DNA of 64,000 nt from Candidatus Multivoradales bacterium (lineage in GTDB: Bacteria > Acidobacteriota > Thermoanaerobaculia > Multivoradales > Multivoraceae), in assembly GCA_965223325.1 (NCBI GenBank), contig CBDCWI010000002.1:1056001-1120000 (forward strand). Reading direction: 5' to 3'. Below the pieces are notes generated by a model that saw only the letters and a list, made by a program, of their open reading frames with translations, searched no databases and was not told the DNA's origin. The position numbers and the translations under genes are program-made. Shown in pieces: positions 44,696 through 64,000 of this stretch. Position 1 is the first letter of the stretch. Each line of letters begins with the position of its first letter.

Positions 44696-44825
44696 GGTGA
44701 GGTGAGGTGAGGCGAAGCAAGAAACACGTTTCCTCAGACCGTTGCTAGACTCGGTGCCACGAAACGCGAGCTACGCTTGGTCCCTGCCGAGGTCCTCGCG
44801 ACGCCCACCGCAGGTCTCCAATGCA

Positions 44826-45968
44826 ATGAAGGAAGATGCCCAGAAACGAATGCTGCGCGAGTCGCTCCGACGGCTCATCGACGAGGAGATCAATCCGCAC
44901 GTCGATGCCTGGGAGGCCGAAGGCATGTTCCCCGCCCACGAGGTGTTCGGCAAGCTCGGCGAGGCCGGCTATCTGGGGCTCCAGAAGCCCGAGGAGTACG
45001 GCGGCCTCGGCCTTTCCTACGACTACGCCGTGATGATGGCCGAGCAGCTCGGCTGGATCGATTGCGGTGGCATCCCGATGGCGATCGGCGTACAAACCGA
45101 CATGGCAACCCCGGCCCTCGCCCGCTTCGGCTCTGACGCTCTGCGTGAGCAGTACCTGCGCCCGGTAATCGAGGGCACGCAGGTAGCGTGCATTGGGGTC
45201 AGTGAGCCGCACGCCGGTTCAGACGTCGCCAACATCAAAACCACTGCAAAACGCGACGGCGACGACTACGTCATCAGCGGCACCAAGATGTGGATCACCA
45301 ACGGCATGCAGGCCGACTGGATGTGCTGCCTTGCCAGCACCGGTGGTGACGACAAGCATCGCGACAAGTCACTCATCATCGTGCCCCTCGACGCCAAGGG
45401 CGTCGAACGGGCCCGCAAGCTCGACAAGCTGGGCATGCGCTCCTCCGACACCGCCCAGATTTTTCTCGACGGCGTCCGCGTGCCGCAAACCAATCGCATT
45501 GGCGAGGAGGGCATGGGCTTCTCCTACCAGATGCAGCAGTTTCAGGAGGAACGCCTCTGGGCTGCTGCTCAGGTGCTGATACGCCTCGAGCGCACGCTTC
45601 GCGAAACCGCCGACTACACCGAGGGGCGGGAAGCGTTCGGGAAACCGCTCCTGGCCAACCAGGTCATTCACTTCCGTCTCGCAGAGCTGCAAACCGAAAT
45701 CGAGGCCCTAAGAGCGCTGGTCTATCGCGCCACCGATCAACTCGTCGCCGGCGAAGAGGTGACCTATCTGGCCTCGATGGCGAAACTCAAGGCCGGTCGT
45801 CTCGCGCGTGAAGTCGTCGACAGCTGCCTGCAGTACTGGGGCGGTCAGGGATACATGTGGGAGTCGCGCATCGCGCGCGAGTTCCGCGACATGCGCCTGT
45901 GGTCGATTGGCGGCGGTGCCGACGAAATCATGCTGCGCATCATCGCCAAATACATGTCCCTGGTCTAG
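44826..45968 (+). CDS. Acyl-CoA dehydrogenase (AtuD/citronellyl-CoA-like)
   Basis: AIGVQTDMATPAL, VSEPHAGSD, GTKMWITNG, FQEERL, CLQYWGG, IGGGADEIM. Confidence 0.92.
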   Translation: MKEDAQKRMLRESLRRLIDEEINPHVDAWEAEGMFPAHEVFGKLGEAGYLGLQKPEEYGGLGLSYDYAVMMAEQLGWIDCGGIPMAIGVQTDMATPALARFGSDALREQYLRPVIEGTQVACIGVSEPHAGSDVANIKTTAKRDGDDYVISGTKMWITNGMQADWMCCLASTGGDDKHRDKSLIIVPLDAKGVERARKLDKLGMRSSDTAQIFLDGVRVPQTNRIGEEGMGFSYQMQQFQEERLWAAAQVLIRLERTLRETADYTEGREAFGKPLLANQVIHFRLAELQTEIEALRALVYRATDQLVAGEEVTYLASMAKLKAGRLAREVVDSCLQYWGGQGYMWESRIAREFRDMRLWSIGGGADEIMLRIIAKYMSLV

Positions 45969-45997
45969 GCCACTCGTTTACCCGGCAGCCCGTCTGA

Positions 45998-46894
45998 ATG
46001 TCCGCGTCTTCCAAGCCCCCGCCCGAGGGCTTCGTTCGGCAGTCGCTGGTGAGCTGGCTCGAGGCCTGCCCCGCCTGCAGTGAAACCCGCCTGTTTCACT
46101 ACTGTCGCGTACCGTCGAAATTCAACGACGGCGAGTTCATCCACTACGAACGTTGCGGTGGGTGCTCGGTGGTCATGCGCAACCCGCGCATGCCAGACGT
46201 CGCCCGTCTCGATGCCTACGAAGAAGATGAGCTCAAGCCGCAGCAGACCGTCGTAACCGAGAAGAACCGGCGGCACTATCGGGTTATGTTGAAGCGCTTG
46301 GCGCGGCTCCCCGGTTGCCACCACGAGCGTGGCGACGAGAGACGGCTCTTCGACTTCGGCTGCGGGGCTGGTGGATTGCTCACCGAAGCGAGCGCTGCGG
46401 GCTGGAAGGTGATGGGCCTCGAGCTCAGCCGCCCCCTGGCCGAGTTCGTCGAGAAGACGCACGGCATTGAAGTCTTCCAGGGTCTGGCGACAGATCCGGC
46501 TCTCGCTTCCGAGCGCTTCGACGCGGTGGTCTCGACCCAGGTGTTCGAGCACCTCACCGACCCGCGTCAGACGTTGCGGGCTCTGGGCCGGATCCTGCGA
46601 CCCGGCGGCCTGATGTTGATCGAGGTTCCCAACCTCGACCATCTTCGCGAACGCCTACGCCGCGGGGCCACCATGGACGACTCGCACATCTTCTGCTGGA
46701 GCTCGAAGAGCCTGCCGGCGCTCCTCGAGCGCGAAGGCTTCGAAGTCATTCGCACCGAGGAAGGCATTCGCACCTTCCACTTCGCTGCCCTTCGAGCTCT
46801 TCCAGACGGCGTCCACCGCGTTCTCGAGCGCCTCCTGGCACTCGTAGGCCTGCGCAGCGGCCTGACGGTCATGGCGCGCAAGTCAGCCCGGTAG
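45998..46894 (+). CDS. Class I SAM-dependent methyltransferase with N-terminal CxxC pairs
   Basis: CPAC...CGGC; FDFGCGAG; VFEHL.DP; IEVPN. Confidence 0.88.
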   Translation: MSASSKPPPEGFVRQSLVSWLEACPACSETRLFHYCRVPSKFNDGEFIHYERCGGCSVVMRNPRMPDVARLDAYEEDELKPQQTVVTEKNRRHYRVMLKRLARLPGCHHERGDERRLFDFGCGAGGLLTEASAAGWKVMGLELSRPLAEFVEKTHGIEVFQGLATDPALASERFDAVVSTQVFEHLTDPRQTLRALGRILRPGGLMLIEVPNLDHLRERLRRGATMDDSHIFCWSSKSLPALLEREGFEVIRTEEGIRTFHFAALRALPDGVHRVLERLLALVGLRSGLTVMARKSAR

Positions 46895-49467: not shown

Positions 49468-51675
49468 TCAGTCGCCGATCGGCCTTCCACTCCACTCACC
49501 CGGCCGCCGGTCTGCGGACTGAAAGCGCCCGCTCATGAGGCTTCGTTCGGCGACGCCTTCGAGCACCAACTGCCCGACCGGTTCACCGAAGTCCATCACC
49601 AGCGAAACGCGAGGCGGTGAGCCGGCGGTGTAGCGACCGCTGACCTTTGTCTGGTAGTCGCGCAGGAAAAGAATGTCGTCTTCGAAAGAAATCGAGGCGC
49701 GTCCGAGAACCGCACCGCCACGATGCTCGAGGTCGAGTCGCAGCCGTACCTGAATGTCATCGCTGGGATAGAACACGTTGGCCAGCGAAATGTCCCAGGC
49801 ACCGGACAGGTCACCGAAATCCGAAGGCGGCGACATCAGGACTCCGCGCAGAATGGCAAGGTCGTCGGCGTCGAGCCGCTCGAGATCGGCCGGCTCGGGT
49901 CGCCCGTAGCCGCCATTCTCGCGATTGATCTCGATCAGTCGATGCAGCACCTGGTGGTAGCGCGGCGCGTCGGCCGAGAGCTCCGGCGGTCGCGCGCGCG
50001 CAAACGTATCGAGAAACCGGTTCCACACCGTGCTCTGCCAAAAGACGAAGAGATCGGCCGGCAACCGCGTGCCACCGGCGAGGAAGGTCGCTTCGAAGTC
50101 TGCCTCGTCGAGGCGCGCCAGGAGGCGACCTTCTTCGTAGCTCGGGCCGACCGCGCGCACTTCCCAGCCACCTTCGACACCGCGCTCCGCGAAGGGCTGC
50201 ACCTCGACCCGCAGCTCGGAATCGTCGGTGGCAAGGCGAAAGAGCTCGTCGAGTGCCTCGACCGATGCGCGCACCTCATCGGGCCAGTCAGCAGCCGAGG
50301 TCATCGGCTCATCCGGCGGCGGCGGCGGCCCGTCGACCCTCAGATAGAACGCCGAGCCGAGAGGCGACCGAATGTGCCAGGCATCGAGTCCTGGAACGTA
50401 GGCAGCCGAGAAGGCAACACTGACCGGCGCGACAATACGCGGCATGACCTCCAACCGCTCGCGCGCCACAATCTCGGTGCCTTCCGTTTCGATCGCCACC
50501 TCGACGTTGCGATTGCCCTCGCGCGTCACCATCGGCACGGTGGCCGTCACCCGACCCGAGCTTGCCAGGGCGACGCGACCGTAGTGCGATCCAAACCTCA
50601 CCCGAGTGCCGCGCACGCTGGTGGGGAGACCGTCGCCGATGATCGCCACTTGCTCGCCGACCCGCACGCGCTGCGGTTCGATGGCTCGGATTTCGGTGAT
50701 CGTGCCGTACTGCAGGGTGGTTTCAAAGAGCAAAAAGCCCGCTGACTCGATGCGTAGCGGCAGCGCCTCGTCACCGGCGTTCAGACCGCGTACCGCAGGC
50801 ACGTGGAACAAGAGTCGCCCCGAGAGCAGTTCGTACGACGGCACCGGCACTTCACCGATGGTGATCTCGAGTTCCTGGTCGGGATCGATACTGGCACTCT
50901 GCAACATCACCTCATGTCCCTCTGCAACACGCCCGGGGTTCACCGAGACAGCCTCCCAGAGGACAGGTCGATCGGTGAACGCACGCCACATCAAGAGCGC
51001 CGAAGTGACCACCAGAAGAGCCAGCCCGATGACGGCCGCCGGTGGCAGCGCCGGCTTGCGTTTCTCCTTCTTCCTCTTGGCTGCAGAACGAGAGCCGGCA
51101 GCGGACTCTCCAGCGTCGTCGTCGGCGAGCTCGGGTTTCGCCACGTGCCGAGACGGGTCGAAGGGCTCGGCGACCGAGGGCTGCTCCGCCTCCTCGGCGG
51201 GCGGCTGTGACGGCTCGACTTCGGCGAGGGTCGGCCGATTCTCCTCCGGTACGACCTCCTGCGGTTTGGTGGGTCGGTCCTGGTCGAGCAGGTCCATCTC
51301 GGCCAGGAGCTCGGCAGCCGGATCGCTGAACCAGAACAGGCTCGCCTCCTGGGGCTCGGTCTCGTCGGTTCCGAAGCCGATCAGCTGGCCGTGATGGAGG
51401 GCCGTGACTTCGGTGACGAAGACACCGTTGAGAAAGGTGCCGTTGGTCGAAGCGAGGTCTTCTAAGAACACCCGCCCCTCGCGCACGAACAACAGGGCGT
51501 GAGCCTTCGAAACGATCGGATCTTCAATGCACAGATCGTTCTCGGGGCTGCGTCCGATGGTCAGGACGCCGCAGTCCGGAACCTCGAAGCAGCGCTCGGT
51601 CTCTCCCGTTGGTCCGAGAAGACAAAGAGCCGCCCGCGGCGCGTTCACCGCGGCATCGCCCGGAGACCGACTCAC
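49468..51675 (-). CDS. FHA-TM-IPT/TIG membrane protein, last gene of the T3SS operon
   Basis: Canonical FHA (IGRS, VSKAH, STNGT); acidic linker; TM; Ig-like IPT repeats (IRAIEPQRVRVGEQVAIIGDGL); GTGA overlap with the upstream gene. Confidence 0.8.
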   Translation of the reverse strand: MSRSPGDAAVNAPRAALCLLGPTGETERCFEVPDCGVLTIGRSPENDLCIEDPIVSKAHALLFVREGRVFLEDLASTNGTFLNGVFVTEVTALHHGQLIGFGTDETEPQEASLFWFSDPAAELLAEMDLLDQDRPTKPQEVVPEENRPTLAEVEPSQPPAEEAEQPSVAEPFDPSRHVAKPELADDDAGESAAGSRSAAKRKKEKRKPALPPAAVIGLALLVVTSALLMWRAFTDRPVLWEAVSVNPGRVAEGHEVMLQSASIDPDQELEITIGEVPVPSYELLSGRLLFHVPAVRGLNAGDEALPLRIESAGFLLFETTLQYGTITEIRAIEPQRVRVGEQVAIIGDGLPTSVRGTRVRFGSHYGRVALASSGRVTATVPMVTREGNRNVEVAIETEGTEIVARERLEVMPRIVAPVSVAFSAAYVPGLDAWHIRSPLGSAFYLRVDGPPPPPDEPMTSAADWPDEVRASVEALDELFRLATDDSELRVEVQPFAERGVEGGWEVRAVGPSYEEGRLLARLDEADFEATFLAGGTRLPADLFVFWQSTVWNRFLDTFARARPPELSADAPRYHQVLHRLIEINRENGGYGRPEPADLERLDADDLAILRGVLMSPPSDFGDLSGAWDISLANVFYPSDDIQVRLRLDLEHRGGAVLGRASISFEDDILFLRDYQTKVSGRYTAGSPPRVSLVMDFGEPVGQLVLEGVAERSLMSGRFQSADRRPGEWSGRPIGD

Positions 51676-52874
51676 AGCGCCATCTCCATCAGCATGGCCA
51701 GGAGAATCGCAGCCGACATCGAAAGCGCCACCAGGCCGACGGTCTTGAGAAGCAGGCCCCACGGAATCGCCCAGAACCAACGTTCGGCTTGCGGAACCGG
51801 CGCTTCCTCCCAGGCAGCCGGCTCGGGCGGCACGACGGAAGCAGCCGGGCGGCCCATGATGCGCTGCTCGAATCCCGCCCGGCCCGTACCAGCCGGTCCC
51901 GAAGACGGTTCGGGGTCCGCCTCAGAGCGAATCTGCCAAGCGGGCGGCGCACCGCCGCGCGGCGCTCTTGGTGCGTCTTTCCAGGGCGTGCTCTCCCTGC
52001 CGCGCGGGTCGGCGCTCGCCTGTCCTGGGTCAAGAGAGAGTCCGGAAGCGGGGTCACCGAAGGGCGCCAGCTGGGGCTCATCGTGGTCCTGGGGGTCATC
52101 GGGCACCGAAGGCAGAAGCGGCCGGCGCGGCACCCTGAGGGTGACATCGATTCTGCTGTGCTCAGAACGCTCCACCCGCGCTTCGACCGCCGCAACACCG
52201 GGCCCACCGGGACGCACCAGAGTGTCGGCCTGGCCGAACGCCTGCGACTCCAAAGCTCCGGACTCGCCGCTAGCGCCCCGCGTCACAACTCGTGTCTGTT
52301 CGAGTGACACCTGCACCTCGGCGTCACTATCGACACCGGTCAAACGATCGAGGAGGTTGGCAAACGCAGGAACGGGCTCCCCCTCCGGCGCCGCCTCGGT
52401 GCCACCGACCGAAAGCACTTCGGGGACTCGAATCTCGATATCGGGCGGCGCCACGGCTGCAGGTGGTACCGGGGCGACTTCGCCGACTGGAAGAGCAGGA
52501 GACGCAACATCGTCGAAATCGAACTCCCCGCTCGCGGAATCAGCGACCCACACGGCGGTCTCAGAGAGCGGCGCGTCGGACGGCTGGACGACCACCCGGA
52601 AGCCACCCACGATGACCGGCTCCCCGAAGGCCAGCGGCACCGCCGATTCACGCAGAAGTGGTGCACCCTGGTACTCGGAGCCGGTACTCGAGCCGACATC
52701 TTCGACCAGTACCCCCGAGCCGCTGCGACGCAACAACAGATGGCGCCATGAGAAAGCCTGAGAGCGCACCCGAACGTCACTGTTCGGTGCCCTGCCCACG
52801 GTCGCAACGCCGCCGGTAAACGGAAACGCCAGGAGGCGTCCGTCCGGGGCATGAATCTCGATACGCATTCTCAT
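51672..52874 (-). CDS. FHA-domain protein with Pro/acidic linker and C-terminal TM anchor
   Basis: VGRAPNSD, SWRH, VEDVGS; C-terminal LLLKTVGLVALSMSAAILLAML. Confidence 0.8.
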   Translation of the reverse strand: MRMRIEIHAPDGRLLAFPFTGGVATVGRAPNSDVRVRSQAFSWRHLLLRRSGSGVLVEDVGSSTGSEYQGAPLLRESAVPLAFGEPVIVGGFRVVVQPSDAPLSETAVWVADSASGEFDFDDVASPALPVGEVAPVPPAAVAPPDIEIRVPEVLSVGGTEAAPEGEPVPAFANLLDRLTGVDSDAEVQVSLEQTRVVTRGASGESGALESQAFGQADTLVRPGGPGVAAVEARVERSEHSRIDVTLRVPRRPLLPSVPDDPQDHDEPQLAPFGDPASGLSLDPGQASADPRGRESTPWKDAPRAPRGGAPPAWQIRSEADPEPSSGPAGTGRAGFEQRIMGRPAASVVPPEPAAWEEAPVPQAERWFWAIPWGLLLKTVGLVALSMSAAILLAMLMEMAL

Positions 52875-52880
52875 CTCGCT

Positions 52881-55079
52881 CTAGGCCCCGGCCGGATCTC
52901 CGGCGCCGACCAGGCCACTCGCCATCTGCACGCGACCGACGGGTTGGATCTGGAGATCGGATGGAAGTTCCTGAAAGGACAGCACCGTGAGATTGCGGAA
53001 CTGATGACGGAGGAGCTTGCCGAGGAAGTAGCGCACTTCCATCTGGGTGAGCACCACCGCGTCTCCATTGACGCCGCTGAGGGCGGCACGGAATCCATTG
53101 ATCACCGCCTGGCTGGTGGACGGATCGAGCTCCAGTGAACTACCCGAGGCGGACTGCCTGATGCCAGCTTCCAGAGCCTGCTCGATCTCGGGATCGAGCA
53201 CCCAGGCCGAAAGCAGCGGCCGGCCTTCGGTGACTTTGTAGGCGATGTAGTTCTTGAGTCCCATGCGCACATACTCGGTGAGGTACACCGGATCGTTCTC
53301 GAACGGTGCCCACTGGGCAAGAGCCTCGAGGATCAAACGCATATTGCGGATCGAAATGTCCTCGTGCAGGAGGCGCTTGAGCACGTCGGTCAGGCGCTGC
53401 ACTGACACCAGCTTCGGCACCACCGCGCTGACCAGCGTCTCGAAGCCCTGCTGTTCGAGCAGATCGAGAATGTTCTGGGTGTCCTGAATACCGATCAACT
53501 GATCGACGTTGCGACGCAGGACGTTGGCCAGATGAATCGCCATGTACTCGTCTGGCTGCATCAGCTGGATGCCCACAGCGCCGGCACGCTCGGCATCGGT
53601 GGCTGGAATCCACAGCCCTTCTTGTTCGAGCGACGGGTGGTCACCCGGGATGCCGCGGATTCCGAGCTGCGCAAGGTAGCCGCCGTCGGCGTTGGCGTAG
53701 ACGTGGCCGGGATAAGCCTCGCCGGTCGCCGCCGGCACTTCGTTGACGTGGATGGTGTAGCTGTTCTCGTCGAGGTAGGCCGCATCGCCTCGCACCTTGA
53801 CTCCTGGGAAGTGCACCCCCAGATCCTGGAACATCCAGTCACGCATCTCCGGAATCAGCTGCTGGACGAAGCGCGGATCACGGTTGGCATCGACCAGCTG
53901 AGTGACCTGGGGCGAAGCCTCGAGAATGACCGGTTGGGAGACCGGTAGGCGGGCGCGATCGGAGTCTCCGCCATTGCCGCCACCAGCTGGAAGCGCTCCG
54001 CCGCCACCATCGACAATTCTCGCCTGCAGCGGGTCGGCCTCCTGCTGTTGCTTGCTGCGATGAAGGCTCCACACCAGACCCCAGCCACCTGCAGCGAGCG
54101 CCAAGAACGGAACCGTGGGCAAGCCGGGAATCAGACCGAGGAAGAGAAGCGTCGTCGCGGCGATACCGATGGCGCGTGGCTGCGCCAGAATCTGCTCACC
54201 GATCTCCTGCCCGAGAGGCTGACCGGCGTCTTCGTCGCCCCCGGTGGCAACGCGGGTGGTGATGATGCCGGCAGTGGTCGCGATCACCAGCGACGGGATC
54301 TGCGAGACCAGACCGTCACCGACAGTCAAGAGGATGTACTTGCTGGCCGCGGCGCTGAACTCGAGGCCTTTACTCACCACTCCGATCGACACACCGGCTG
54401 CGATGTTGACAAGGGACACCACGATGCCGACGATCGCGTCACCTTTGACGAACTTCATCGCCCCGTCCATGGCGCCATAGAACTGCGACTCGCGCCCGAG
54501 GTACTCACGCCGCGCCTTGGCCTCGTGCACATCGATGAGCCCGGCCCGCAAGTCCGCGTCGATGCTCATCTGCTTGCCCGGCAAGGCGTCGAGGGTGAAG
54601 CGGGCCGCGACCTCCGAGACACGCTCGGCACCTTTGGCAATGACGATGAACTGCACCAGGGTAATCACCAGGAAGATCACGAAGCCGACCCCGAACTGCC
54701 CCTGGACGACGAACTTGCCAAACGACTCAATGACCTCGCCGGCATAGCCGTTGAGCAGGATCAGGCGGGTCGATGAAACATTGAGCGCCAACCGGAAGAC
54801 CGTGGCGATCAGCAGAATGCTCGGAAACGAGGCCAGCGAGAGCGCTCGCGGCACATAAAGCGAAACCATCAGGAGCGTCACCGCCAGGGTCATGTTGGCG
54901 GCCAGGAACAAGTCCAGGATGAACGTCGGCATGGGCACGAAGATCACCGCGATCATCGTGATCACCAGCGCCGCCAACGCCAGATCCGAGTAGCGGCGCA
55001 GCAACTGACTCAGGTTGCCGCCCAGAAGGCCTGAGAGAAGGTCGCGCGCCTGGTCCTGTTTGTTTCTGTTCTCGCTCAT
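52881..55079 (-). CDS. sctV: T3SS export gate SctV (LcrD/FlhA family)
   Basis: FRLALNVSSTRLIL, KGAERVSEVAARFTLDALPGKQMSIDADL, GAMDGAMKFVKGDA, GDGLVSQIP. Confidence 0.95.
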   Translation of the reverse strand: MSENRNKQDQARDLLSGLLGGNLSQLLRRYSDLALAALVITMIAVIFVPMPTFILDLFLAANMTLAVTLLMVSLYVPRALSLASFPSILLIATVFRLALNVSSTRLILLNGYAGEVIESFGKFVVQGQFGVGFVIFLVITLVQFIVIAKGAERVSEVAARFTLDALPGKQMSIDADLRAGLIDVHEAKARREYLGRESQFYGAMDGAMKFVKGDAIVGIVVSLVNIAAGVSIGVVSKGLEFSAAASKYILLTVGDGLVSQIPSLVIATTAGIITTRVATGGDEDAGQPLGQEIGEQILAQPRAIGIAATTLLFLGLIPGLPTVPFLALAAGGWGLVWSLHRSKQQQEADPLQARIVDGGGGALPAGGGNGGDSDRARLPVSQPVILEASPQVTQLVDANRDPRFVQQLIPEMRDWMFQDLGVHFPGVKVRGDAAYLDENSYTIHVNEVPAATGEAYPGHVYANADGGYLAQLGIRGIPGDHPSLEQEGLWIPATDAERAGAVGIQLMQPDEYMAIHLANVLRRNVDQLIGIQDTQNILDLLEQQGFETLVSAVVPKLVSVQRLTDVLKRLLHEDISIRNMRLILEALAQWAPFENDPVYLTEYVRMGLKNYIAYKVTEGRPLLSAWVLDPEIEQALEAGIRQSASGSSLELDPSTSQAVINGFRAALSGVNGDAVVLTQMEVRYFLGKLLRHQFRNLTVLSFQELPSDLQIQPVGRVQMASGLVGAGDPAGA

Positions 55080-55098
55080 GATCTTCTCGGGCCCCGTC

Positions 55099-56169
55099 TC
55101 AGCGGGCCGCCTCGAACTCGTCGCCGCCTTCGCGGCGGATCTTCCAGGCGAAGAGCAGAACCTGCGCCACCGCATCGAACAGCTCCGAGGGCACGAAGCG
55201 ATCGACGCGCACGTCGTAGAGCGCGTGCGCGAGCGGCACGTCGCGAAGGATCGGAACATTGCGGCGACGCGCCATGCGGATGATCATCTTGGCCTTCTTG
55301 TCGAGGCCCTTTGCGGTGACCTTCGGCGCCGCCATGTCTTTGTCGTTGTAGCGCAGGACAATCGCGTAGTGGGTGGGGTTGACCACCACTGCGTCGGCCT
55401 GGCGAACGGCGGTCTTGACGTCTTCGCTGAGAATCTCCTGATGAATCTGGCGGCGTTTGCCTTTGATCTGAGGATCGCCTTCTGAATCCTTGAACTCGCG
55501 CTTGATCTCGTCCTTGGTCATCATCAGGTCCTTCCTCCACTTCCAACGTTGGAACGCGAAGTCGAGAAGACCAATGGCCGCAAACACCGCCGCCACCGTC
55601 AGCAGGAACCGTCTGGCAATCGAGCCGGTGTGAAACGCGACACCCGCTGCGTCGACGTAGCCGAGTTGTAGAAGGACGCCCCGCGAACCCCAGATCGTCA
55701 CCCCTGCGATCAAGAACAGGAGCGTCAACTTGGCGAAGGTCTTCGCCAGTTCGAAGAGCCCTCGGGTAGAGAAGATGTTCTTCGCCTGCTTGAGCGGATC
55801 GAGTTTCTCGAGCTTGGGCTTCAGCTTCTCGGTCGAAACCACCGGACCGACCTGGATCCAGGCCGCGAGCGCTCCCAGAAGCGCCAGGGGTACGACGATC
55901 GGTAGGAGGAGTAGAAACGCCGTCCAGATCGCCTCGCGGAGCACCGCCGGCATGAGCATTGGGTCGAGCGCTTCGGCTTCGACCCTCGATACCGCGTCGC
56001 CATAGATCTCGGTGAACGACCGCTGGATGGCGCGCATCGAGACCGAGATCACCAACAGGCCACCGAGAAAGGTGGCCACCGAGTTCGCGTCTTTGCTGAA
56101 CGGCACATTGCCCTTCTTGCGCGCGTCGCGGAGCTTCTTGGGGGTGGGCTGTTCGGTCTTGTTCGACAT
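55099..56169 (-). CDS. sctU: T3SS substrate switch SctU
   Basis: KTEQPTPKKLRDARKKG, KDSEGDP, autocleavage motif NPTH. Confidence 0.95.
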   Translation of the reverse strand: MSNKTEQPTPKKLRDARKKGNVPFSKDANSVATFLGGLLVISVSMRAIQRSFTEIYGDAVSRVEAEALDPMLMPAVLREAIWTAFLLLLPIVVPLALLGALAAWIQVGPVVSTEKLKPKLEKLDPLKQAKNIFSTRGLFELAKTFAKLTLLFLIAGVTIWGSRGVLLQLGYVDAAGVAFHTGSIARRFLLTVAAVFAAIGLLDFAFQRWKWRKDLMMTKDEIKREFKDSEGDPQIKGKRRQIHQEILSEDVKTAVRQADAVVVNPTHYAIVLRYNDKDMAAPKVTAKGLDKKAKMIIRMARRRNVPILRDVPLAHALYDVRVDRFVPSELFDAVAQVLLFAWKIRREGGDEFEAAR

Positions 56170-56310
56170 GGTGCTGGTGCCGTGGTCCTTCGCCCCGCTC
56201 TACATAGAAGGGAGTCCGGAAAAAGCCAGGGTGTCCCTCACTTCTTCCCGGTTCCCGAGGATTCGTTACCGGCTGCGGAGAAAGAACCCAGAACTCCTTG
56301 AAATAGGGCC

Positions 56311-57258
56311 CTAGAGCGATGGCGGCTCCCCTGGGAGAGGGACATTCTGGGGCGCCGTCCCTGGTTCCTGGCGCCCTTCTCCTGGGTCCTCGCCCGGTGC
56401 GACCTCTGCGGCAACCGGATCGGGAGGCGTCCAGACTTCGACCGGAATCGCGCGGTGGAACTGCCCGCGGTACTCGAGCACCATCGAGCCGAAGATGTCC
56501 TGGACCCAGTAGAGCGAGAGACCGACCATCAGCGCCGCCAGGGTCGACTTGAGCGACAGGCTGATGAAGAACACGTCGAGCTGCGGTGCCATCCGGTTGG
56601 CGACTCCGAGCATCAAGTCGAGCAGGATGATCACCACCAGGGCTGGCGCGATGATGCGCAGCATCATGCTGAACAGTGATCCCACACCTTCCGCGAAACC
56701 AACGCCGATTGGCCCGGCGGCCCACGCGAAGTCGAGCGGCGGAAAAACGCGGTAGGAGTCGAAGACCGCGCCAAGAAACCAGAGGTGGCCGCCGCTGACC
56801 AGAAAGAGCACCACGAAGAGCTGGAAGTAGAAGCCTCCGAGGAGTGAACTCTGAACCTGCACCTGCGGCAGCAGGAGGTTCGCGGTCGTGGTGCCACGCA
56901 CATTGTCGAGAAACCGGCCGCCCATCTCGGCAGCCCAGAAGACCAGACTGGCGCCGAAGGCGAGCGTGAAGCCGATCACCACTTCCTTGATCAAGAGCGC
57001 CCACCATGTAACTTCTGAGATGCGCAAGGGAACCGGCGCCACCGCGCTCATGCCCGGCAACAGCCACAACGCCGTCGACACGGCCAGGGCCAGCTTGATC
57101 GGGTTGGGAACCAGCTTGCCACCCAGGAAAGGCGTGAGCGCAAACACCGGCGCCCAGCGCGCCATACCGAGCAGAAAGAGTTGCAGCGCACCGACCGGAT
57201 CGTGGCGAATGCCAAGCTCCCCGAAGACGGCGAGGAAGAACTCGTCGAGAGGGCCCAC
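56311..57258 (-). CDS. sctT: T3SS export apparatus SctT
   Basis: PFLG, KEVVIG, AEMGGRFLDNVRG, NRMAPQLDVFF.SLSLK. Confidence 0.92.
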   Translation of the reverse strand: MGPLDEFFLAVFGELGIRHDPVGALQLFLLGMARWAPVFALTPFLGGKLVPNPIKLALAVSTALWLLPGMSAVAPVPLRISEVTWWALLIKEVVIGFTLAFGASLVFWAAEMGGRFLDNVRGTTTANLLLPQVQVQSSLLGGFYFQLFVVLFLVSGGHLWFLGAVFDSYRVFPPLDFAWAAGPIGVGFAEGVGSLFSMMLRIIAPALVVIILLDLMLGVANRMAPQLDVFFISLSLKSTLAALMVGLSLYWVQDIFGSMVLEYRGQFHRAIPVEVWTPPDPVAAEVAPGEDPGEGRQEPGTAPQNVPLPGEPPSL

Positions 57259-57534
57259 TCATGTGCCTCCGGCCACGATCTGGGGAAACGACTCGAAGAT
57301 GGTGATCGCGAAGCGCAGCACCAGACCCGCCATCCAATAGCCGAGCAACATCACGATGCCGAAGATGGCAACGATGCGGCCGACCATCGAGAGGGTCTGC
57401 TCCTGCACCTGGGTCAAGGCTTGGAAAAGCGCCACCGACAAGCCAACGAACATCGCGCCCAGGACCGGCGGACCCGAAATCAAGACCACCAACATGATCG
57501 CCTGTTGGGCGAAGCGCAGGTACTCCTGACCCAT
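57259..57534 (-). CDS. sctS: T3SS export apparatus SctS
   Basis: VGLSVALFQALTQVQEQTL; 91 aa. Confidence 0.93.
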   Translation of the reverse strand: MGQEYLRFAQQAIMLVVLISGPPVLGAMFVGLSVALFQALTQVQEQTLSMVGRIVAIFGIVMLLGYWMAGLVLRFAITIFESFPQIVAGGT

Positions 57535-58238
57535 CAGAGGTATCCCTGCAGGAGCCCGCGAGTCAGCACCGTCCAGCCGTCGGTCATGATGAACAGGAGC
57601 AGCTTGAAGGGCAGTGAAACCACCACCGGCGAAAGCATGTGCATGCCCATCGCGAGCAGAATGTTCGAGATCACCATGTCGATGACCAGAAATGGCAGGA
57701 ACAGCAGAAAGCCGATCGCAAAGGCCTCGGTGAGCTCGCTGATCGCAAACGCCGGAATCAAGACGACGAGATTGTCGCGCTCCATCCCCGTGCGCCATGA
57801 CTCCGGTCCCATGCGCCGCGCCCACTCGAGAAAGAACTCGACTTCGTGCTCGTGCGCGTGGCGCGCCAGAAACGTGCGAATCGGCGGCTTGCTCTTCTCG
57901 AAGGTCTCGAGCAGAAGCGCCGCACCCTGCCCGGAGAGCGCCTCCGCGCTCACGTCGCCGGCGAGCTCGGGTTCGAGCTGCTCGTAGATCTCAGCTCCCA
58001 CGGGTGACATCACATACACCGAAAGCAGAACCGCCAGGCCCAGGATCACCGGGTTCGGCGGGATCTGCTGGGTGCCGAGAGCGTTGCGGAGAATCGAGAA
58101 GACCACCGAGAACTTGAGAAACGAGGTGGTCATCATCAAGAGGAACGGCAGCAACGAGAGCAGCCCAAGCAGGATCACCGAGTTGATCGGGTTGGCGCCG
58201 ATCTGACTCGCCTGCGCGACCGTGGTGAGAACGCTCAT
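57534..58238 (-). CDS. sctR: T3SS export apparatus SctR
   Basis: TSFLKFSVVFSILRNALGTQQIPPN (YscR-type), PAFAISEL, SLPFKLLLF..DGW. Confidence 0.95.
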   Translation of the reverse strand: MSVLTTVAQASQIGANPINSVILLGLLSLLPFLLMMTTSFLKFSVVFSILRNALGTQQIPPNPVILGLAVLLSVYVMSPVGAEIYEQLEPELAGDVSAEALSGQGAALLLETFEKSKPPIRTFLARHAHEHEVEFFLEWARRMGPESWRTGMERDNLVVLIPAFAISELTEAFAIGFLLFLPFLVIDMVISNILLAMGMHMLSPVVVSLPFKLLLFIMTDGWTVLTRGLLQGYL

Positions 58239-58588
58239 CAGGTCTCGCCCCCACCGGCAGCAGGCGGCTCTTCGAGCCGGCCCCTGAGCTGACGGTTCGC
58301 TTCGTCGGCGTCGTCCGCCAGCCACCCGTCGACCCGCTCGATTCCGCTCGGGCTGGTGCCGATGAGCCAGCGACGGCCCTCGTAGGCGACCACCAACAGC
58401 CGGTTGCGACTGTCGAGAACCTTCATGTCGAGAATCTCGATACCAACCCCGCCGCCAGCCAGACGACGGCGCTCAAGCGCCGGCAGCACCTTGCGCGCGA
58501 CGGCAGCCAGCACCAGGATGAGCGCCACGACGACCACCAGTGACGCCAGCATGCGAAAGCCATAGACCGCCAGTTCACCTTCAGCCAT
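58238..58588 (-). CDS. fliO: FliO-like export chaperone
   Basis: One TM (LASLVVVVALILVLA) then IEILD...LLVV.YEGRRWLIG; sits between SctQ and SctR, as in fliNOP. Confidence 0.75.
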   Translation of the reverse strand: MAEGELAVYGFRMLASLVVVVALILVLAAVARKVLPALERRRLAGGGVGIEILDMKVLDSRNRLLVVAYEGRRWLIGTSPSGIERVDGWLADDADEANRQLRGRLEEPPAAGGGET

Positions 58589-60290
58589 GCGGTGGGTCTC
58601 CCTTGGAACTCGCGAGCCAACGTTCGATGCGCACGCCGATCTGGTCATCGATCGTCACCACGCGCGCGTAGCCCACCAGGCGAGCGCCGCTGGCCTGGCG
58701 AAGGTAGATCTTGACGCTGTCGTCGGGGCGCATCTCGAGCGGTACCACCACTCCTTCGCGCCACGTCGAAAGCTCGCCAAGGGGAACGCTCAGCGAGCCG
58801 AGCTCGAAGGCGAGCGTGACTTCGAGCTCGTTCTCTAGGTCGATCGGAGCCTGGTCGGCAGCCGCTTGCTCCTCGCGACCCGGAGCCCCTCCCAGAGAGT
58901 CGTCTCCAGGATCACTCTCGAGGTCGACCTCGGGATCTCTAACCACATCAGGGTCGTTGTCCGGTTCGGTCACAGTCCACTCTCCTGGCGCCGCCACGCG
59001 CCACTCGTCGTCATGAATTTCGAGGTTCGGGTTCGGGTTTTCGTCGTCAGGCCATTGCAGTACGCCGCGGCGCCACCAGTTCTGGACGGTCACTGCGACG
59101 GGGGCGGGCGCTGCCCGTTGGTCTGCTCTTGGCGGCCCGGTGAGCCAGGCGTCGGGCAAGACGATGTCGCCGGCACCGAGCCCTTTGAGTTCTGGGAGTT
59201 CGAGCGTCACCCAACCCGCGAGCAGCGACACCTGGAAGCTCCGCGCCAGCGCCCAACCAGGAGCCTCGTCAGGGTCGGCATCTGAAAGCTCGGGAGCGGC
59301 CCAGACAGCCGCCATCTCGAAGGCCTGCCCGCCGATCGCACCCACGATCCGACTGCCAATGAAGGCGCCCGAGCCCATTTGGCGAGCGGCCGTCTCGGCG
59401 TCGAGGATCGACGAGATCTCGACGGTAAGAGCGCTCGCTTCGGCAAACTGCTGGCACACGAGATCGAGCAGATGAAGCAGTACGCCGCGCTCGACATCGG
59501 TCACGGCCCCCGACGGCGGCGACGCCGTCTCGCTCCACTGCCGGCCCTGGCGGTCCCAGGCGAAACGTAGCCAGGACGCCGGTACCGACAGCCACAACTC
59601 CTGGTTGCCTACCGCAACGCGCAGCCAGTGGCCCGCTTCTCCACCGATGACCTCGACCGGGCGGTCCAGGCGCAGGTCGAGCGTTCCACCGTGGGTGAGC
59701 GAGAACGGCGTCTGATCGGCACTCCGTCGATCGCCGATCGCCAGCACGAAGGAACCCACTTCGACCCGATCGCCGACGGTCACTGCCATGGCTTCCCTGA
59801 CGTTCGAACCGTTGATTGCCACCTCGGCACCTTCGGCGGGTACCAACCACACCGCCTGCTCGTCGATGCGTAGCTCGGCAACCAGAGGCGCGATGCCCTG
59901 CAGCCTGAGATCACACGCCGGATCCGCGCCGATCCTCACGCGCCTGCCATCGAAGAGCGCGGCATGACGCGACCCCTCCGGGGTCACCAACACCACTTCG
60001 AGTCCGGAGGCGCCTCGCCGATCCGGCTCGAGGACCCGCTCGATCGCCTCGAGGAGCGTCGACCGGTAGTCGGCGTCGAAACCGTCGACCGCATCGGCCA
60101 CCGCGCGCCTGACGCGACGATTGTCGCTCATGCGCCTCTTCGAGGAATCCGGCAACCACTCTGACCAACAGCGAGCCGGCATGACGACCGATTCGGTGTC
60201 TGCCCAGACCGAAGCGTCCGAGTCCTCTCGGCCACACGAACTCTCGGGCTCGGTAACGGACGGTGCGTCGGGATGACGGAGTTCATTCAT
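58581..60290 (-). CDS. sctQ: SctQ/FliM-FliN C-ring protein with inserted FHA/YscD-like domain
   Basis: Two SPOA-like segments (LPELKGLGAGDIV; LAFELGSLSVPLGEL...GVRI) and an internal RIGADPACDLRL...INGS...VGDRVEVG domain. Confidence 0.78.
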   Translation of the reverse strand: MNELRHPDAPSVTEPESSCGREDSDASVWADTESVVMPARCWSEWLPDSSKRRMSDNRRVRRAVADAVDGFDADYRSTLLEAIERVLEPDRRGASGLEVVLVTPEGSRHAALFDGRRVRIGADPACDLRLQGIAPLVAELRIDEQAVWLVPAEGAEVAINGSNVREAMAVTVGDRVEVGSFVLAIGDRRSADQTPFSLTHGGTLDLRLDRPVEVIGGEAGHWLRVAVGNQELWLSVPASWLRFAWDRQGRQWSETASPPSGAVTDVERGVLLHLLDLVCQQFAEASALTVEISSILDAETAARQMGSGAFIGSRIVGAIGGQAFEMAAVWAAPELSDADPDEAPGWALARSFQVSLLAGWVTLELPELKGLGAGDIVLPDAWLTGPPRADQRAAPAPVAVTVQNWWRRGVLQWPDDENPNPNLEIHDDEWRVAAPGEWTVTEPDNDPDVVRDPEVDLESDPGDDSLGGAPGREEQAAADQAPIDLENELEVTLAFELGSLSVPLGELSTWREGVVVPLEMRPDDSVKIYLRQASGARLVGYARVVTIDDQIGVRIERWLASSKGDPPHG

Positions 60291-60390
60291 GGTGAGGCGG
60301 TAGGAAGGCGACTGGCGGGGTTCCTGGAGATCGACGACCAGGGGAAGCGGTCATCGAGGTGGGTCAGGAGGGGGGTGGAGTTGGGCGGTG

Positions 60391-61452
60391 TCAGTTCTTT
60401 TTGGGAGTCGGGGTTCCTCGGCTGGAAAAGTCGTCGACGCCTTCGAGCTGCCAGAGTCCCCTGGAGCGTCGCTCTTCGGACTGGTCGCGCGATTCGCCGG
60501 TCGCCGAGCCACTGCCATCTGCGGTGGCGGCCTCCTCGGGGCGTTCAACGCGTAGATCACGAACCTCGAGCCCGCGCTCCCGCAGCCGGCTGGCGAGTTC
60601 GGGAAGGCGCACGTCGAGGGCCGCCTCTGCGGAGGCCTGTTCGACGACGAAGAGGACGCGGAGCGACTCCTGTCCGTCAACCCTAGATTCCTTCAAAACC
60701 TGCGCTTTTGCAAGTCCCAGCGCCCCAAGATCGAGGCTCAGGTCGACCCGCGGGCGATGAACGGAGAGGTGAACCTGTACTGCCTCGAGCACCTTGCGCG
60801 CCACTTCCTGGAGAACCGTCGGATCGATGGCCTGCGGTTCCGCAACGGCCGAGGCCTCCGAAACCCCCGTCAGACCTGGATTCCCGGTGCTTTGAAGACC
60901 GGACGGTACCTGCTGGATTGCGTTCTCCGGCGAGGCCTCAGCCGGCGAGCCAAGCGCCTCGTCGAGATTCGCGGTCGCTTTCGAGGAGCGCGATTTGTCA
61001 AGAGTTGCGCACTCTCCTTCTACCTCACCTGGAGGCGGTAGATGGCCCGAACAGACGACCGGCGGCTGGAACACTGGCGACGAGCCGCCGGGCTGGCCCA
61101 GCGAAACCTGCGGCAGCTCATGCATGTCTTCGAACGACTCTTCCTGGCGTGCCTGGCGCCCCCAACCACCGCGGCCGCGGACGGCATCGTCTCGGCCGGC
61201 CGTGGACGCGCGGTTCGTGGGCCGCGACGTTCTCGGAAGCGCTTTCCCTTGCCGCCCCTTCTTGTTCGACTGCTTCGGACCGACACGGCGAACTGAAGCG
61301 CGCAGGACCTGGTCACGGGCCCGACCGATGGCGTCGCCGCTACGAGCGGCATTGCTCGAGCGATCGAGGGCCTCTTCGAAGCCGTTGGAGGCCTCGTCGT
61401 GGCGCTGGTCGGTCGCTTCGCTTCGATGCTGATTGTCGATCTTGTTGGTCAT
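60391..61452 (-). CDS. sctP: SctP/FliK-like length ruler
   Basis: Long disordered N-terminus; C-terminal domain LDLGALG...LPELASRLRERGL; canonical position between sctO and sctQ. Confidence 0.65.
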   Translation of the reverse strand: MTNKIDNQHRSEATDQRHDEASNGFEEALDRSSNAARSGDAIGRARDQVLRASVRRVGPKQSNKKGRQGKALPRTSRPTNRASTAGRDDAVRGRGGWGRQARQEESFEDMHELPQVSLGQPGGSSPVFQPPVVCSGHLPPPGEVEGECATLDKSRSSKATANLDEALGSPAEASPENAIQQVPSGLQSTGNPGLTGVSEASAVAEPQAIDPTVLQEVARKVLEAVQVHLSVHRPRVDLSLDLGALGLAKAQVLKESRVDGQESLRVLFVVEQASAEAALDVRLPELASRLRERGLEVRDLRVERPEEAATADGSGSATGESRDQSEERRSRGLWQLEGVDDFSSRGTPTPKKN

Positions 61453-62051
61453 GACTCGTTCCCACGTTCAGACGAATAGGAGTCACTCGCCGAACCCTTT
61501 GCGCCAGAAGGCCTGCCTCGGGGATCGGTGGTCGAGGGGCGGCTTCTCGCTCTCCTTCCGGAACCATGAGTATTCGTTACGATCTCTTCCAAGGTTCTCG
61601 CTTCGCGGCGGCGCGCTTCCAGTCGCTGCTCTTCGATCCAATCCTCACGGTGTTTCTCGAGCACTTCGAGTTCGCGGCGTGCCTCGGCACAGGCAGCACG
61701 TGCCGCCTCGACGCGCTCGGAAGCGGCAACCAGCTCCTTCTCCTGAGCGTGGATCTCTAGATCGGTCTCGGCAATGCGGCTCCCCAGAAACTGCAGCGTG
61801 CCGCGCCGACGACTGATCTCGGCGATCTCGAGTCCACCGCCCGTATCAGGCTGATAGAGCTGCTGGCTTGCCTCTTCCAGCTCTTCGGCCAGGACCGAAC
61901 GACGAACTTCGAGCCGTCGCAACGCCTCTTCCTCCAGCGCCAGCTCGCGCTGACGCATGGCCAGGTCCTCGCGTGCCCGCTCGAGCGCTGTCTCCCGTAC
62001 CTTCATCGCCGCCCGCAGAGGGTAGGTCAGTTCGAGTTTGCGGCGGTTCAC
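61449..62051 (-). CDS. sctO: T3SS stalk SctO/FliJ
   Basis: YPLRA..KVRE; coiled coil; LEKHREDW; directly after the ATPase. Confidence 0.8.
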
Positions 62052-63403
62052 GAGAGCACCTCGCCGATCTCGTGCAGTTGGGCCAGCGTGTCCAGAGCGC
62101 CGGGCCGTTCATCGAGACCCTGGCGCAGGAATCCGTCAATTGTGGGCATGTGTTCGATCGCCAGGTCGACGGTGGGATCACTTCCCGACTGGTAGGCACC
62201 GAGCAGAATCAGGTCGCGACTCTCTTCGTAGGCAGCCAGGAGCTCGCGCAGGCGTCGTGCCGACTCGACATGCTCGGGAGCCGCCACGGCACCCATGACG
62301 CGGCTGGCGCTCGCCAGCACGTCGATCGCCGGATAGTGCCCCCGACCCGCCAGCTTGCGACTCAGAATCACATGCCCGTCGAGAATCGAACGCGTTTCGT
62401 CAGCCACCGGCTCGGTCATGTCGTCGCCTTCGACGAGCACGGTGTAGAAAGCAGTAATCGAACCCCGTGCTGAGTTCCCGGTGCGCTCCAAGAGCCGCGG
62501 CAGCGTGGCAAAAACCGAAGGTGGGAAACCGGCGCGCGCCGGTGGTTCGCCAACCGCCAGCCCCACCTCGCGTTGGGCACGGGCAAAGCGGGTCACCGAG
62601 TCCATCATCAACAGGACCTTCTTGCCTCGGTCGCGAAAGTACTCCGCAACTGCGGTGGCGACATAGGCCGACTTGAGACGCACCATCGAAGGTTGATCCG
62701 AGGTCGCCACGATCACCACCGAGCGCGCCAGGCCCTCTGGGCCGAGCGACTCTTCGAGAAAGTCGCGCACTTCGCGGCCACGCTCACCGATCAGGGAGAT
62801 GACATTGATCTCGGCCTCGGTGTTGCGCGCCAGCATGCCCAGGAGCGTCGACTTACCACCACCGGCGGCAGCGAAGATGCCGACGCGCTGCCCTTCGCCA
62901 ACCGTTAGACAACCGTCGAGGGCGCGCACGCCGGTCTCGAAGGGATCGAGAATGCGTTGGCGTTGCATCGGGTCGGGAGGAGCCGCATAGACCGGGTAGC
63001 GCTCGAGCTCGCTCTCTTCGATCGCTCCAAGGCCGTCGATGGGACGTCCTAAACCGTCGAGGACCCGCCCGAGAAGTCCGGGGCCGACCGGCACCTGCAA
63101 GACCTCGCCGGTGGCGCGCACCTCGGTATCGGGGCCGATGCCCTCGGTCTCACCAAGTGTCATCAGAAAGACTTCGCCACCCTCGAAGCCCACCACTTCG
63201 GCACGCACAGGAAACGACTTCTGATCGCCACGCGGCGGCGGTTCGAGCCAGCACAGCTCGCCCACCCGGACGCCCGGCATGCGAGCGCGCACGACCAGCC
63301 CGGTGACCTCGGTCACTCTGCCGCGCACCTCGAGGGCGTTGACCTCATCGAGACGCAGAGCGAGGTTCCCGAGACCGAAGGCGTCGCCCTTTGACGAGCT
63401 CAT
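62048..63403 (-). CDS. sctN: T3SS ATPase SctN
   Basis: [13 protein letters not shown] (YscN-type), [27 protein letters not shown]. Confidence 0.96.
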
Positions 63404-64000
63404 GACTCGGTTCCTTCATACGGATCGCGCGGTGACGGCGGTGCCAAGAGGTGCTCTTCGATGGCACGCAACTGCGACTCGACACTCGCATCGACGGTCC
63501 CGATCTCGCTTTCGATGCGACAGCCGCCACGCTCCATCGACTCCTCGGCCACCACCCGCAGGTGTTCCCAGCGCGGATCGGCGACCACCAGGTCGGCTCG
63601 CGCCGCGGCCAGGGCCGCGGCATCTTCGGGATGCACGTGGACTCGCACGTCGCGCCCCGATCGACCGAGAGTGCGCAACGCGCTTTCGATCGTCGGTACG
63701 ATGGACTCTGGTCGTGCCTCGAGCTCACGACGCAGGAGCTTGCGCGCCGTTTGCATCGCCAGGTGCACCACCTGATCACGCGCCTCGGCGACCCGTTCGT
63801 CGACCGCGCGGGTGGCTTCGAGAACCCGCGCTTCCCACGCCGCCAACCCCTCGGCCAGGCCGCGGTCGCGCGCTGCCGCCTGCATCTTGTTGGCCGAGTC
63901 CTTGGCCGCCTCTCGAATCTCGGCCGCCTCTCGTTCAGCCGCGGCCACTCGCTCTTCGGATGCCGCCCGTGCGGCCGCCACGATGCGCTCGGCTTCGCAC
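63400..64000 (-). CDS. sctL: T3SS stator SctL/FliH (5' end outside window)
   Basis: AxxxG helix ([10 protein letters not shown]), [22 protein letters not shown]. Confidence 0.88.

Follow-up and report, generated by a model that had tools for sequence, protein, structure and literature searches.

Myxobacterial type III secretion systems (T3SS), the closest described systems to the one reported here, have been termed needle-less (PMC3459982, PMC12075869, PMC10433427, PMC12428579; statements on cited papers refer to the parts available to us). The Myxococcus T3SS* (MXAN_2434-2464; Herrou et al. 2025) acts in prey lysis and needs Tad/Kil for its recruitment (PMC12075869). The non-flagellar T3SS (NF-T3SS) found by Abby and Rocha (2012) were confined to Chlamydiae, Proteobacteria and Verrucomicrobia (PMC3459982). 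FliO, which stabilises the FliP-FliR core, is lacking from classical injectisomes according to Fabiani et al. (PMC5542435). Andrianova et al. (2025; bioRxiv 10.1101/2025.05.06.652439, PMC12403147) have described it in NF-T3SS of some Pseudomonadota and of Myxococcota, the two M. xanthus loci included. Here we describe a T3SS locus at the end of a 64,000-nucleotide stretch of DNA, the window (G000:C2:1056001-1120000), from a bacterium of the class Thermoanaerobaculia (Acidobacteriota); an earlier reading of the letters alone, below the sequence-only reading, had correctly guessed at an acidobacterial host from an environmental phylum. The host genome (6.69 Mb, two contigs, 98.2% complete) contains no other T3SS, and every export-gate gene is single-copy. 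With a probability of roughly 60%, we consider that the locus encodes an intact, early-branching NF-T3SS of the broad myxobacterial type, which would build a needle-like filament without a secretin or SctD ring of its own.

A non-flagellar export operon

The run sctL-N-O-P-Q-fliO-R-S-T-U-V-FHA-FHA named by the sequence-only reading was found complete, in that order and on the minus strand (Table 1). The core genes have no internal stops, and neighbouring genes overlap. SctV, SctU, SctR and SctN scored above the cut-offs of the NF-T3SS NCBIfam models and below those of the flagellar ones: SctV 748 with hrcV versus 637 with FlhA, SctU 365 with the SctU model versus 336 with FlhB, SctR 245 with yscR versus 198 with fliP, and SctN 619 with III_secr_ATP (cut-off 605) versus 606 with FliI clade 2 (cut-off 630). 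SctT (150 as SctT, 121 as flagellar, beneath both cut-offs) leaned to the non-flagellar side, and SctS was tied (75 non-flagellar, 77 flagellar). The motifs FAAAGGGKS of SctN and TSFLKFSVV of SctR, which had been read as injectisome signatures, are present. No flagellar genes follow sctV, as had also been observed before; flagellin and rod domains were found by Pfam search in 0/5 carrier genomes (the search gave matches in 4/14 named genomes as a control), and FliF, FliG, FliM, FlgE and MotA had no tblastn match in the host genome. Together with the trees presented below, these results make it very probable, as far as sequence can tell, that the system is a non-flagellar T3SS.

The operon continues for 6.3 kb past the window end, where positions are given on L001 (L001 position 1000 is window position 64000). 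The sequence-only reading had pointed to this region as the place to look for further T3SS components. It does contain sctJ and a needle-family gene; neither sctC nor sctD was found there, and of the 51 protein-kinase matches in the host genome none lies in the T3SS locus. As annotated by family models and position, one operon encodes a complete export gate, the ATPase complex, the SctJ ring, an inner rod, a needle-family protein with its TPR chaperone, a class II chaperone and FliO.

By the same kind of annotation, the operon is conserved across the Thermoanaerobaculia carriers. The order SycD-E-F-G-I-J-K-L-N-O-P-Q-fliO-R-S-T-U-V-FHA-FHA is kept in the genomes G029, G021 and G338, and in the loci L007 and L011 over the part that was fetched; in G706 it is divided between two pieces. 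The G670 contig breaks off after sctK, and just the 198-aa-type gene was found. SctV scored above the hrcV cut-off in 6/401 sampled genomes of the class and 20/401 of the phylum, the host genome included. Records bearing the names Pyrinomonadaceae, Nitrospira, Eisenbacteria, Deltaproteobacteria and Myxococcota in their titles contain related SctR loci as well. In the titles and abstract openings of the searched literature, subscription papers being outside its scope, there was no report of a T3SS in Acidobacteria or Thermoanaerobaculia. A rearranged locus was seen in G399 (L103-L104, G399:C1:429000-460000), split by an apparent two-component pair and large unrelated open reading frames (ORFs). 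Large ORFs with repeated matches to the SctV/FlhA C-terminal domain were also noted in L106 (G119:C8, ~43900-46200) and at G667:C1:2516369-2518983; in the 20 kb covered by L106 no other T3SS gene was detected.

The needle-like gene and its chaperone

Several lines of evidence suggest that the 68-aa ORF next to the TPR gene is a real needle gene, which we regard as likely. The profile of its family (12 members) had a single significant match in the PDB, the 43-aa chain 7y6c_F (E=2.6e-5), which resembles the C-terminus of an annotated Pantoea SctF; we take this chain to be a needle fragment, the label in the deposited file being co-chaperone. The family aligned with three annotated SctF proteins in hhalign (E=1.6e-5) and gave no profile-profile match to SctI, SseB, HrpA, translocon or chaperone templates. 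When the profile was built without the sequence from the window genome, the 68-aa ORF ranked first among the 78,905 ORFs of that genome (E=0.0013), and the best reversed decoy for the full profile had E=5.3. T3SS_needle_F was matched weakly by just 3/12 members.

AlphaFold predicted a single long helix for the 68-aa protein (predicted local distance difference test, pLDDT, 76.5). In the model of its complex with the TPR protein, residues 47-67 lie in the TPR groove with a score of 0.82, compared with 0.02 for the best control; the mark set for such scores was reached by 116/157 solved and 2/215 mismatched pairs, and the runs share at least 63% of contacts at a partner pLDDT of 56-58. Because like complexes have already been solved, this model shows likeness, not binding. 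The neighbouring 74-aa protein was also considered as a YscE homologue, and hhalign gave no match to YscE references.

The same needle-like family is found in myxobacteria as well. The 9.3-Mb Myxococcota genome G627 has Tad genes and two T3SS loci, one long and one short, and each locus contains such a gene. The first encodes 189 aa and precedes sctI-J together with a TPR gene, and the second encodes 155 aa and lies immediately before sctI-J; the acidobacterial proteins have the canonical size of 68-93 aa. The 189-aa protein matched Pfam T3SS_needle_F with E=0.012, and one of its Atlas neighbour clusters has this domain in 11% of members. Of 121 sampled Myxococcota genomes, 104 gave a match to the needle-like profile, and all but one of the 30 best myxobacterial loci adjoin either sctI/J (12) or a TPR gene (17). 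No report of an SctF or needle gene of myxobacteria was seen in the literature searched. The presence of the family in Myxococcota T3SS loci makes the published criterion that the myxobacterial type lacks SctF look doubtful. Judging by its genes, the long locus of G627 appears to correspond to the T3SS* of M. xanthus.

Additional observations concern myxobacterial genomes. Matching Myxococcota genomes, among them G459, G420, G449 and G454, have up to 17 copies of the needle-like C-terminal helix per genome, some in frames longer than 700 aa, and such multi-copy helices are candidate T3SS* substrates or filament subunits. In the long locus of G627 (L159:14158-18666, L160:4179-5600) a sigma-70-family factor is kept too, FliG_C takes the place of sctK and SctQ has a FliM domain.

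FliO

The fliO gene overlaps both sctQ and sctR. Its product narrowly passes PF04347 (23.5 versus the 22-bit cut-off), matches TIGR03500 with E=2.6e-9 and has the features of the family, namely a transmembrane (TM) helix, a cytoplasmic beta domain and a gene adjoining sctR. Among the best 80 SctR loci from GTDB genomes, three of which lie at contig edges, a FliO-like gene is immediately upstream of sctR in 69/77 assessable related loci; it precedes sctQ in five alphaproteobacterial loci and is missing from three of the Granulosicoccus type. Of the FliO candidates from related T3SS loci, 28/29 were above the Pfam cut-off, and no FliO match was found in the seven classical reference loci. The premise of the sequence-only reading that classical injectisomes lack FliO agrees with PMC5542435. 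Its claim that FliO is retained in a non-flagellar T3SS also stands as to presence. It does not stand as a new feature, since FliO has been published for such systems (PMC12403147); the host phylum appears to be what is new. In Dataset S2 of that paper all 20 Thermoanaerobaculia rows are zero, and among the rows listed the first 'T3SS' row is 17711, of Myxococcota, well after the Acidobacteriota rows (25/90 'T3SS' rows inspected, among at least 19,466 rows).

Phylogenetic position and comparison with known systems

Trees were calculated with IQ-TREE from concatenated SctN, R, S, T, U and V (1,996 columns), using subsets of 39, 29, 22 and 17 taxa; 47/67 assembled loci were kept and 20 partial or redundant ones dropped. 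The trees include neither Chlamydiae, which is a real gap, nor G006 (38% SctR match). The flagellar, the classical and the Thermoanaerobaculia-centred clades each received 100% support, and no tree placed the window system within the classical clade. Under LG+G4, the Thermoanaerobaculia-centred clade either was the sister of the group that includes the myxobacterial long locus or shared a clade with it (Shimodaira-Hasegawa-like approximate likelihood ratio, SH-aLRT, 98 with 39 taxa; 94/95 with 22 taxa). Under C20 it again joined this group with 29 taxa (94), and with 17 taxa it was sister to the classical systems instead (90). The approximately unbiased (AU) test rejected a grouping with flagella (p=0.005) and did not reject sisterhood with classical systems (p=0.079 and 0.083). 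The exact branch point varies with the model and the taxon set. What the sequence-only reading called non-flagellar and deep-branching is upheld by the rejected flagellar grouping, the lack of flagellar genes in the genome and the position outside both the flagellar and the classical clades.

The same reading had also called the system Myxo-like. This holds in so far as it is secretin-less and is mostly sister to the myxobacterial long-locus group; with a needle-family gene, its chaperone and no Tad markers, it is not Myxo-like in the published sense of a needle-less system partnered by Tad/Kil. Like the long (T3SS*) system of Myxococcales, it has FliO, SctJ/I/L/N/O/P/Q/R/S/T/U/V, LcrH-type chaperones and an FHA-TM gene, and the gene order of the G627 long locus (F-like, G-like, I, J, K, L, N, O, P, Q, fliO, R, S, T, U) is comparable. 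The usual sister in the trees is the Myxococcales long group, from which the acidobacterial system is set apart in a clade of its own with 100% support. It further differs from the long group by the SctQ-FHA fusion, by an extra FHA-TM-IPT protein and in that no Tad/Kil partner was found; unlike G627, it has no match to a sigma factor, FliG_C or FliM.

With classical systems (Ysc, Desulfo, SPI-1, SPI-2, Hrp1, Hrp2, Rhizo) it shares the export gate, ATPase complex, SctJ, SctI, a needle-family gene with a YscG-type chaperone, and the SycD-type chaperone. The Desulfovibrio and Yersinia loci have sctC-sctD followed by E-F-G-(H)-I-J-K-L, and the window system has the same block minus C and D; in contrast to the classical systems, SctC, periplasmic SctD, SctW and CesT were not found and FliO is present. 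The flagellar likeness lies in the position of fliO between the C-ring gene and fliP/sctR and in the fliO-P-Q-R-flhB-flhA-type order, whereas flagellin, rod, hook, FliF, FliG, FliM and MotA were not found and the scores are of the non-flagellar type. The FliO-bearing systems of Pseudomonadota (Andrianova et al. 2025; here the Sphingomonas-type loci L076, L081, L082, L084 and L086) likewise have fliO in a non-flagellar operon, but they possess their own secretin and SctD, and fliO is upstream of sctQ. The one tested in trees, L081, branches with classical systems. During this work L156, a Halomonas sp. PA16-9 replicon first labelled as a flagellar reference, was corrected to an unannotated NF-T3SS that groups with the rhizobial family.

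Missing components and alternative explanations

Several results weigh against the proposed needle-building system. The 68-aa protein alone has no Pfam match, and a three-sequence classical SctF profile fails to retrieve it. The secretin profile detected no SctC in the T3SS locus. A three-sequence profile of the SctD periplasmic ring domains, which finds the SctD of Hrp1, Rhizo, Granulosicoccus and Sphingomonas, gave nothing significant in the host genome (best E=0.046). SctW, a fast-evolving family for which no profile search was made, had no tblastn match with two single queries, and CesT had no tblastn match in the host genome. As none of these four components was found, the route through the outer membrane is left unexplained. 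The host genome has two secretins, and these end a pilMNOPQ-like operon and lie in a type II secretion system (T2SS)-like operon, respectively (operon names read from translations). The Tad/Kil markers RcpC and TadE were found in 0/4 Thermoanaerobaculia genomes (G000, G029, G021, G338); the control G627, of Myxococcota, has both. No effectors were found, and the 445-aa translocator candidate was not found in the loci of relatives. The distribution is patchy (6/401 class genomes), and G001, a genome of the same genus, gave no SctR match. Across the loci searched with them, the secretin and periplasmic-SctD profiles matched only classical references, Halomonas and the Sphingomonas and Granulosicoccus types, besides PilQ/GspD-type loci.

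The alternative that best survives is an exporter limited to the periplasm, in which a short rod or needle stub would release proteins to be carried onward by the T2SS, the type IV pilus or vesicles. The failure to find a dedicated secretin, SctD ring and SctW, and the presence of the T2SS-like operon and pilMNOPQ, fit this explanation, and a periplasmic needle is raised for the ancestor by Abby and Rocha (PMC3459982). Nevertheless, the locus has kept genes for a length ruler and a class II chaperone as well as a translocator-like gene with hydrophobic segments, all of which usually serve contact-dependent delivery, and we consider a periplasmic exporter unlikely.

Still less probable is an injectisome directed at eukaryotes (protists, fungi or a host) with PilQ or GspD borrowed as the outer ring. 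The needle, chaperones and translocator-like gene resemble those of classical systems, sisterhood with which was recovered in one tree and was not rejected by the AU test, and secretins have been recruited several times (PMC3459982). However, most trees join the system to the myxobacterial long-locus group, whose one studied member acts on bacteria, and SctW, CesT and effectors were not found. A decaying relic or flagellar remnant, to which the patchy distribution, the FliO gene and the synteny break with G001 beside the locus might point, is highly improbable given the rejected flagellar grouping, the intact reading frames, the same gene order across several families and a genome free of flagellar genes.

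FHA-domain proteins and late genes

Table 1. Genes of the T3SS locus (window positions, or positions on L001 beyond the window)
Feature	Position	Strand	Basis
FHA1, ~735 aa	49468..51675 (longest ORF to 51780)	-	Pfam FHA, TIG
FHA2, 400 aa; FHA, low-complexity linker, C-terminal TM (378-396)	51672..52874	-	Pfam FHA
sctV, export gate, 732 aa	52881..55079	-	TIGR01399 748 bits, above cut-off
sctU, switch protein, NPTH site	55099..56169	-	TIGR01404 365 bits, above cut-off
sctT	56311..57258	-	PF01311; TIGR01401 150 vs fliR 121
sctS, 91 aa	57259..57534	-	PF01313; ATG overlaps sctR stop
sctR, 234 aa	57534..58238	-	TIGR01102 245 bits, above cut-off; ATG overlaps fliO stop
fliO, flanked by sctQ and sctR; 116 aa with a single TM helix	58238..58588	-	PF04347, TIGR03500
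sctQ with N-terminal FHA/YscD-cytoplasmic-like domain	58581..60290 (probable start 60128)	-	FliMN_C, Yop-YscD_cpl
sctP-like length ruler	60391..61452	-	weak FliK C-terminal match E=5e-5; position
sctO, stalk	61449..62051	-	PF16789 YscO-like 68 bits
sctN, ATPase	62048..63403	-	TIGR02546 619 bits, above cut-off
sctL, stator, 247 aa	63400..64000, start 143 bases past window end (L001:400-1143)	-	FliH/SctL families
Gene at sctK position, 362 aa	L001:1176-2264	-	position only; no informative Pfam match
sctJ	L001:2270-3130	-	TIGR02544 126 bits vs fliF 21
sctI	L001:3207-3647	-	weak Pfam; hhalign to SctI references E=2.6e-4
YscG/CdsG-like TPR chaperone, 129 aa	L001:3680-4069	-	CdsG E=1e-7; hhalign to YscG-type references E=1.2e-7
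SctF-family needle-like subunit, 68 aa	L001:4174-4380	-	family profile, hhalign, position, chaperone model
74-aa helical protein at YscE position	L001:4484-4708	-	role from position alone; conserved
SycD/LcrH-type chaperone, 191 aa	L001:4712-5287	-	TIGR02552 E=5.5e-11, below cut-off
198-aa protein, C-terminal second needle-like helix; candidate tip/filament extension	L001:5305-5901	-	
445-aa protein, two hydrophobic segments; candidate translocator	L001:6006-7343	-	hydropathy

FHA1 consists of an FHA domain, a linker, one TM helix (245-263), two IPT/TIG domains, an alpha/beta domain and an 8-stranded avidin-like barrel. The part after the TM helix was modelled by AlphaFold with pLDDT 89.6, and the IPT and barrel folds gave matches with Z 12-14. 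Orthologues follow sctV in G029, G021, G338, G399, G670, G706 and L007. FHA1 was considered as a cryptic SctD and set aside: there was no ring-domain profile match, and the fold searches returned IPT domains and the barrel and no SctD, the middle domain (~190-380 of the model) being barely covered. Orthologues of FHA2 in relatives are shorter. The GR and SxxH motifs, which we take to be phosphothreonine-binding, are kept in FHA1 and FHA2 and missing from the FHA domain of the window SctQ. The SctQ-FHA fusion is present in 5/6 other acidobacterial SctQ proteins tested and not in the long-locus SctQ of G627.

The gene at the sctK position matched weakly the G627 gene at the same position (E=0.0015); hhalign was negative for FliG and YscK. 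The C-terminus of the 198-aa protein aligned with SctF references (E=6.3e-5), and in relatives its orthologue adjoins the SycD-type gene; a PDB profile search with its family returned mostly Gly-rich linker artefacts. For the 445-aa protein, which has one homologue, Atlas leads pointed to SctE and NolX clusters at 0.79-0.80, under 0.9 and so leads only, and Desulfovibrio translocon proteins as queries had no match, either by tblastn of the host genome or by hhalign. An unlinked paralogue of the 445-aa gene (~810-856 aa, G000:C2:4357751-4360321) has the same hydrophobic segment and may be a second substrate; G000:C2:3790338-3793115 gave a weaker match. Near the paralogue, an ORF at G000:C2:4354006-4355571 presumably resembles a group II intron reverse transcriptase.

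Recent horizontal gain of the locus was considered, and composition gave no signal for it: GC is 64.6% versus 64.2 +/- 0.9, and the tetranucleotide distance falls on the 66th percentile. Just past the locus, at L001:10112-19454, genes for FG-GAP/ASPIC-UnbV proteins are clustered with one for a TonB-dependent-type receptor.

Proposed mechanism and implications

For the needle-building system that we favour, the following sequence of events may be proposed by analogy with known families. FliO would serve the SctR-SctT core as an assembly chaperone, the part it plays for FliP-FliR, and SctG would hold the C-terminal helix of the needle subunit until export. SctP and the autocleavage of SctU would then end the elongation of the needle and redirect export towards late substrates, presumably the 198-aa and the 445-aa protein, with the SycD-type chaperone as their escort. 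More tentatively, the FHA-TM proteins and the FHA domain of SctQ could replace the cytoplasmic scaffold of SctD, and the FHA domains may link assembly to serine/threonine phosphorylation. To pass the outer membrane, the filament might borrow a secretin, PilQ or GspD, or might cross directly where two cells touch, and proteins might be delivered into neighbouring cells, most likely other bacteria. The sequence-only reading had also suggested interbacterial contact or predation; to contact-dependent protein delivery we give slightly less than even odds.

Of most interest are the host phylum, which appears to be new, the pairing of a needle-family gene and its chaperone in a system for which no SctC, SctD or Tad was found, and the doubt cast on the term 'needleless'. 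The published account of injectisome origin has the myxobacterial systems without a secretin and with the needle lost, and models of Myxococcus predation are built on a needle-less T3SS* for which Kil pilus tips substitute. The acidobacterial variant presents the same machine in a phylum with no earlier report in the searched literature and with no Tad partner found, and raises the question by what route a T3SS that lacks a secretin of its own passes the outer membrane. We tentatively propose that the basal, secretin-less branch of NF-T3SS is not needle-less, and that an SctF-family gene with its chaperone may be ancestral and widespread there, T3SS* included. The Thermoanaerobaculia would then represent a living form, working without a Tad pilus, of the FliO- and needle-bearing, secretin-less stage that has so far been proposed only as an ancestor.

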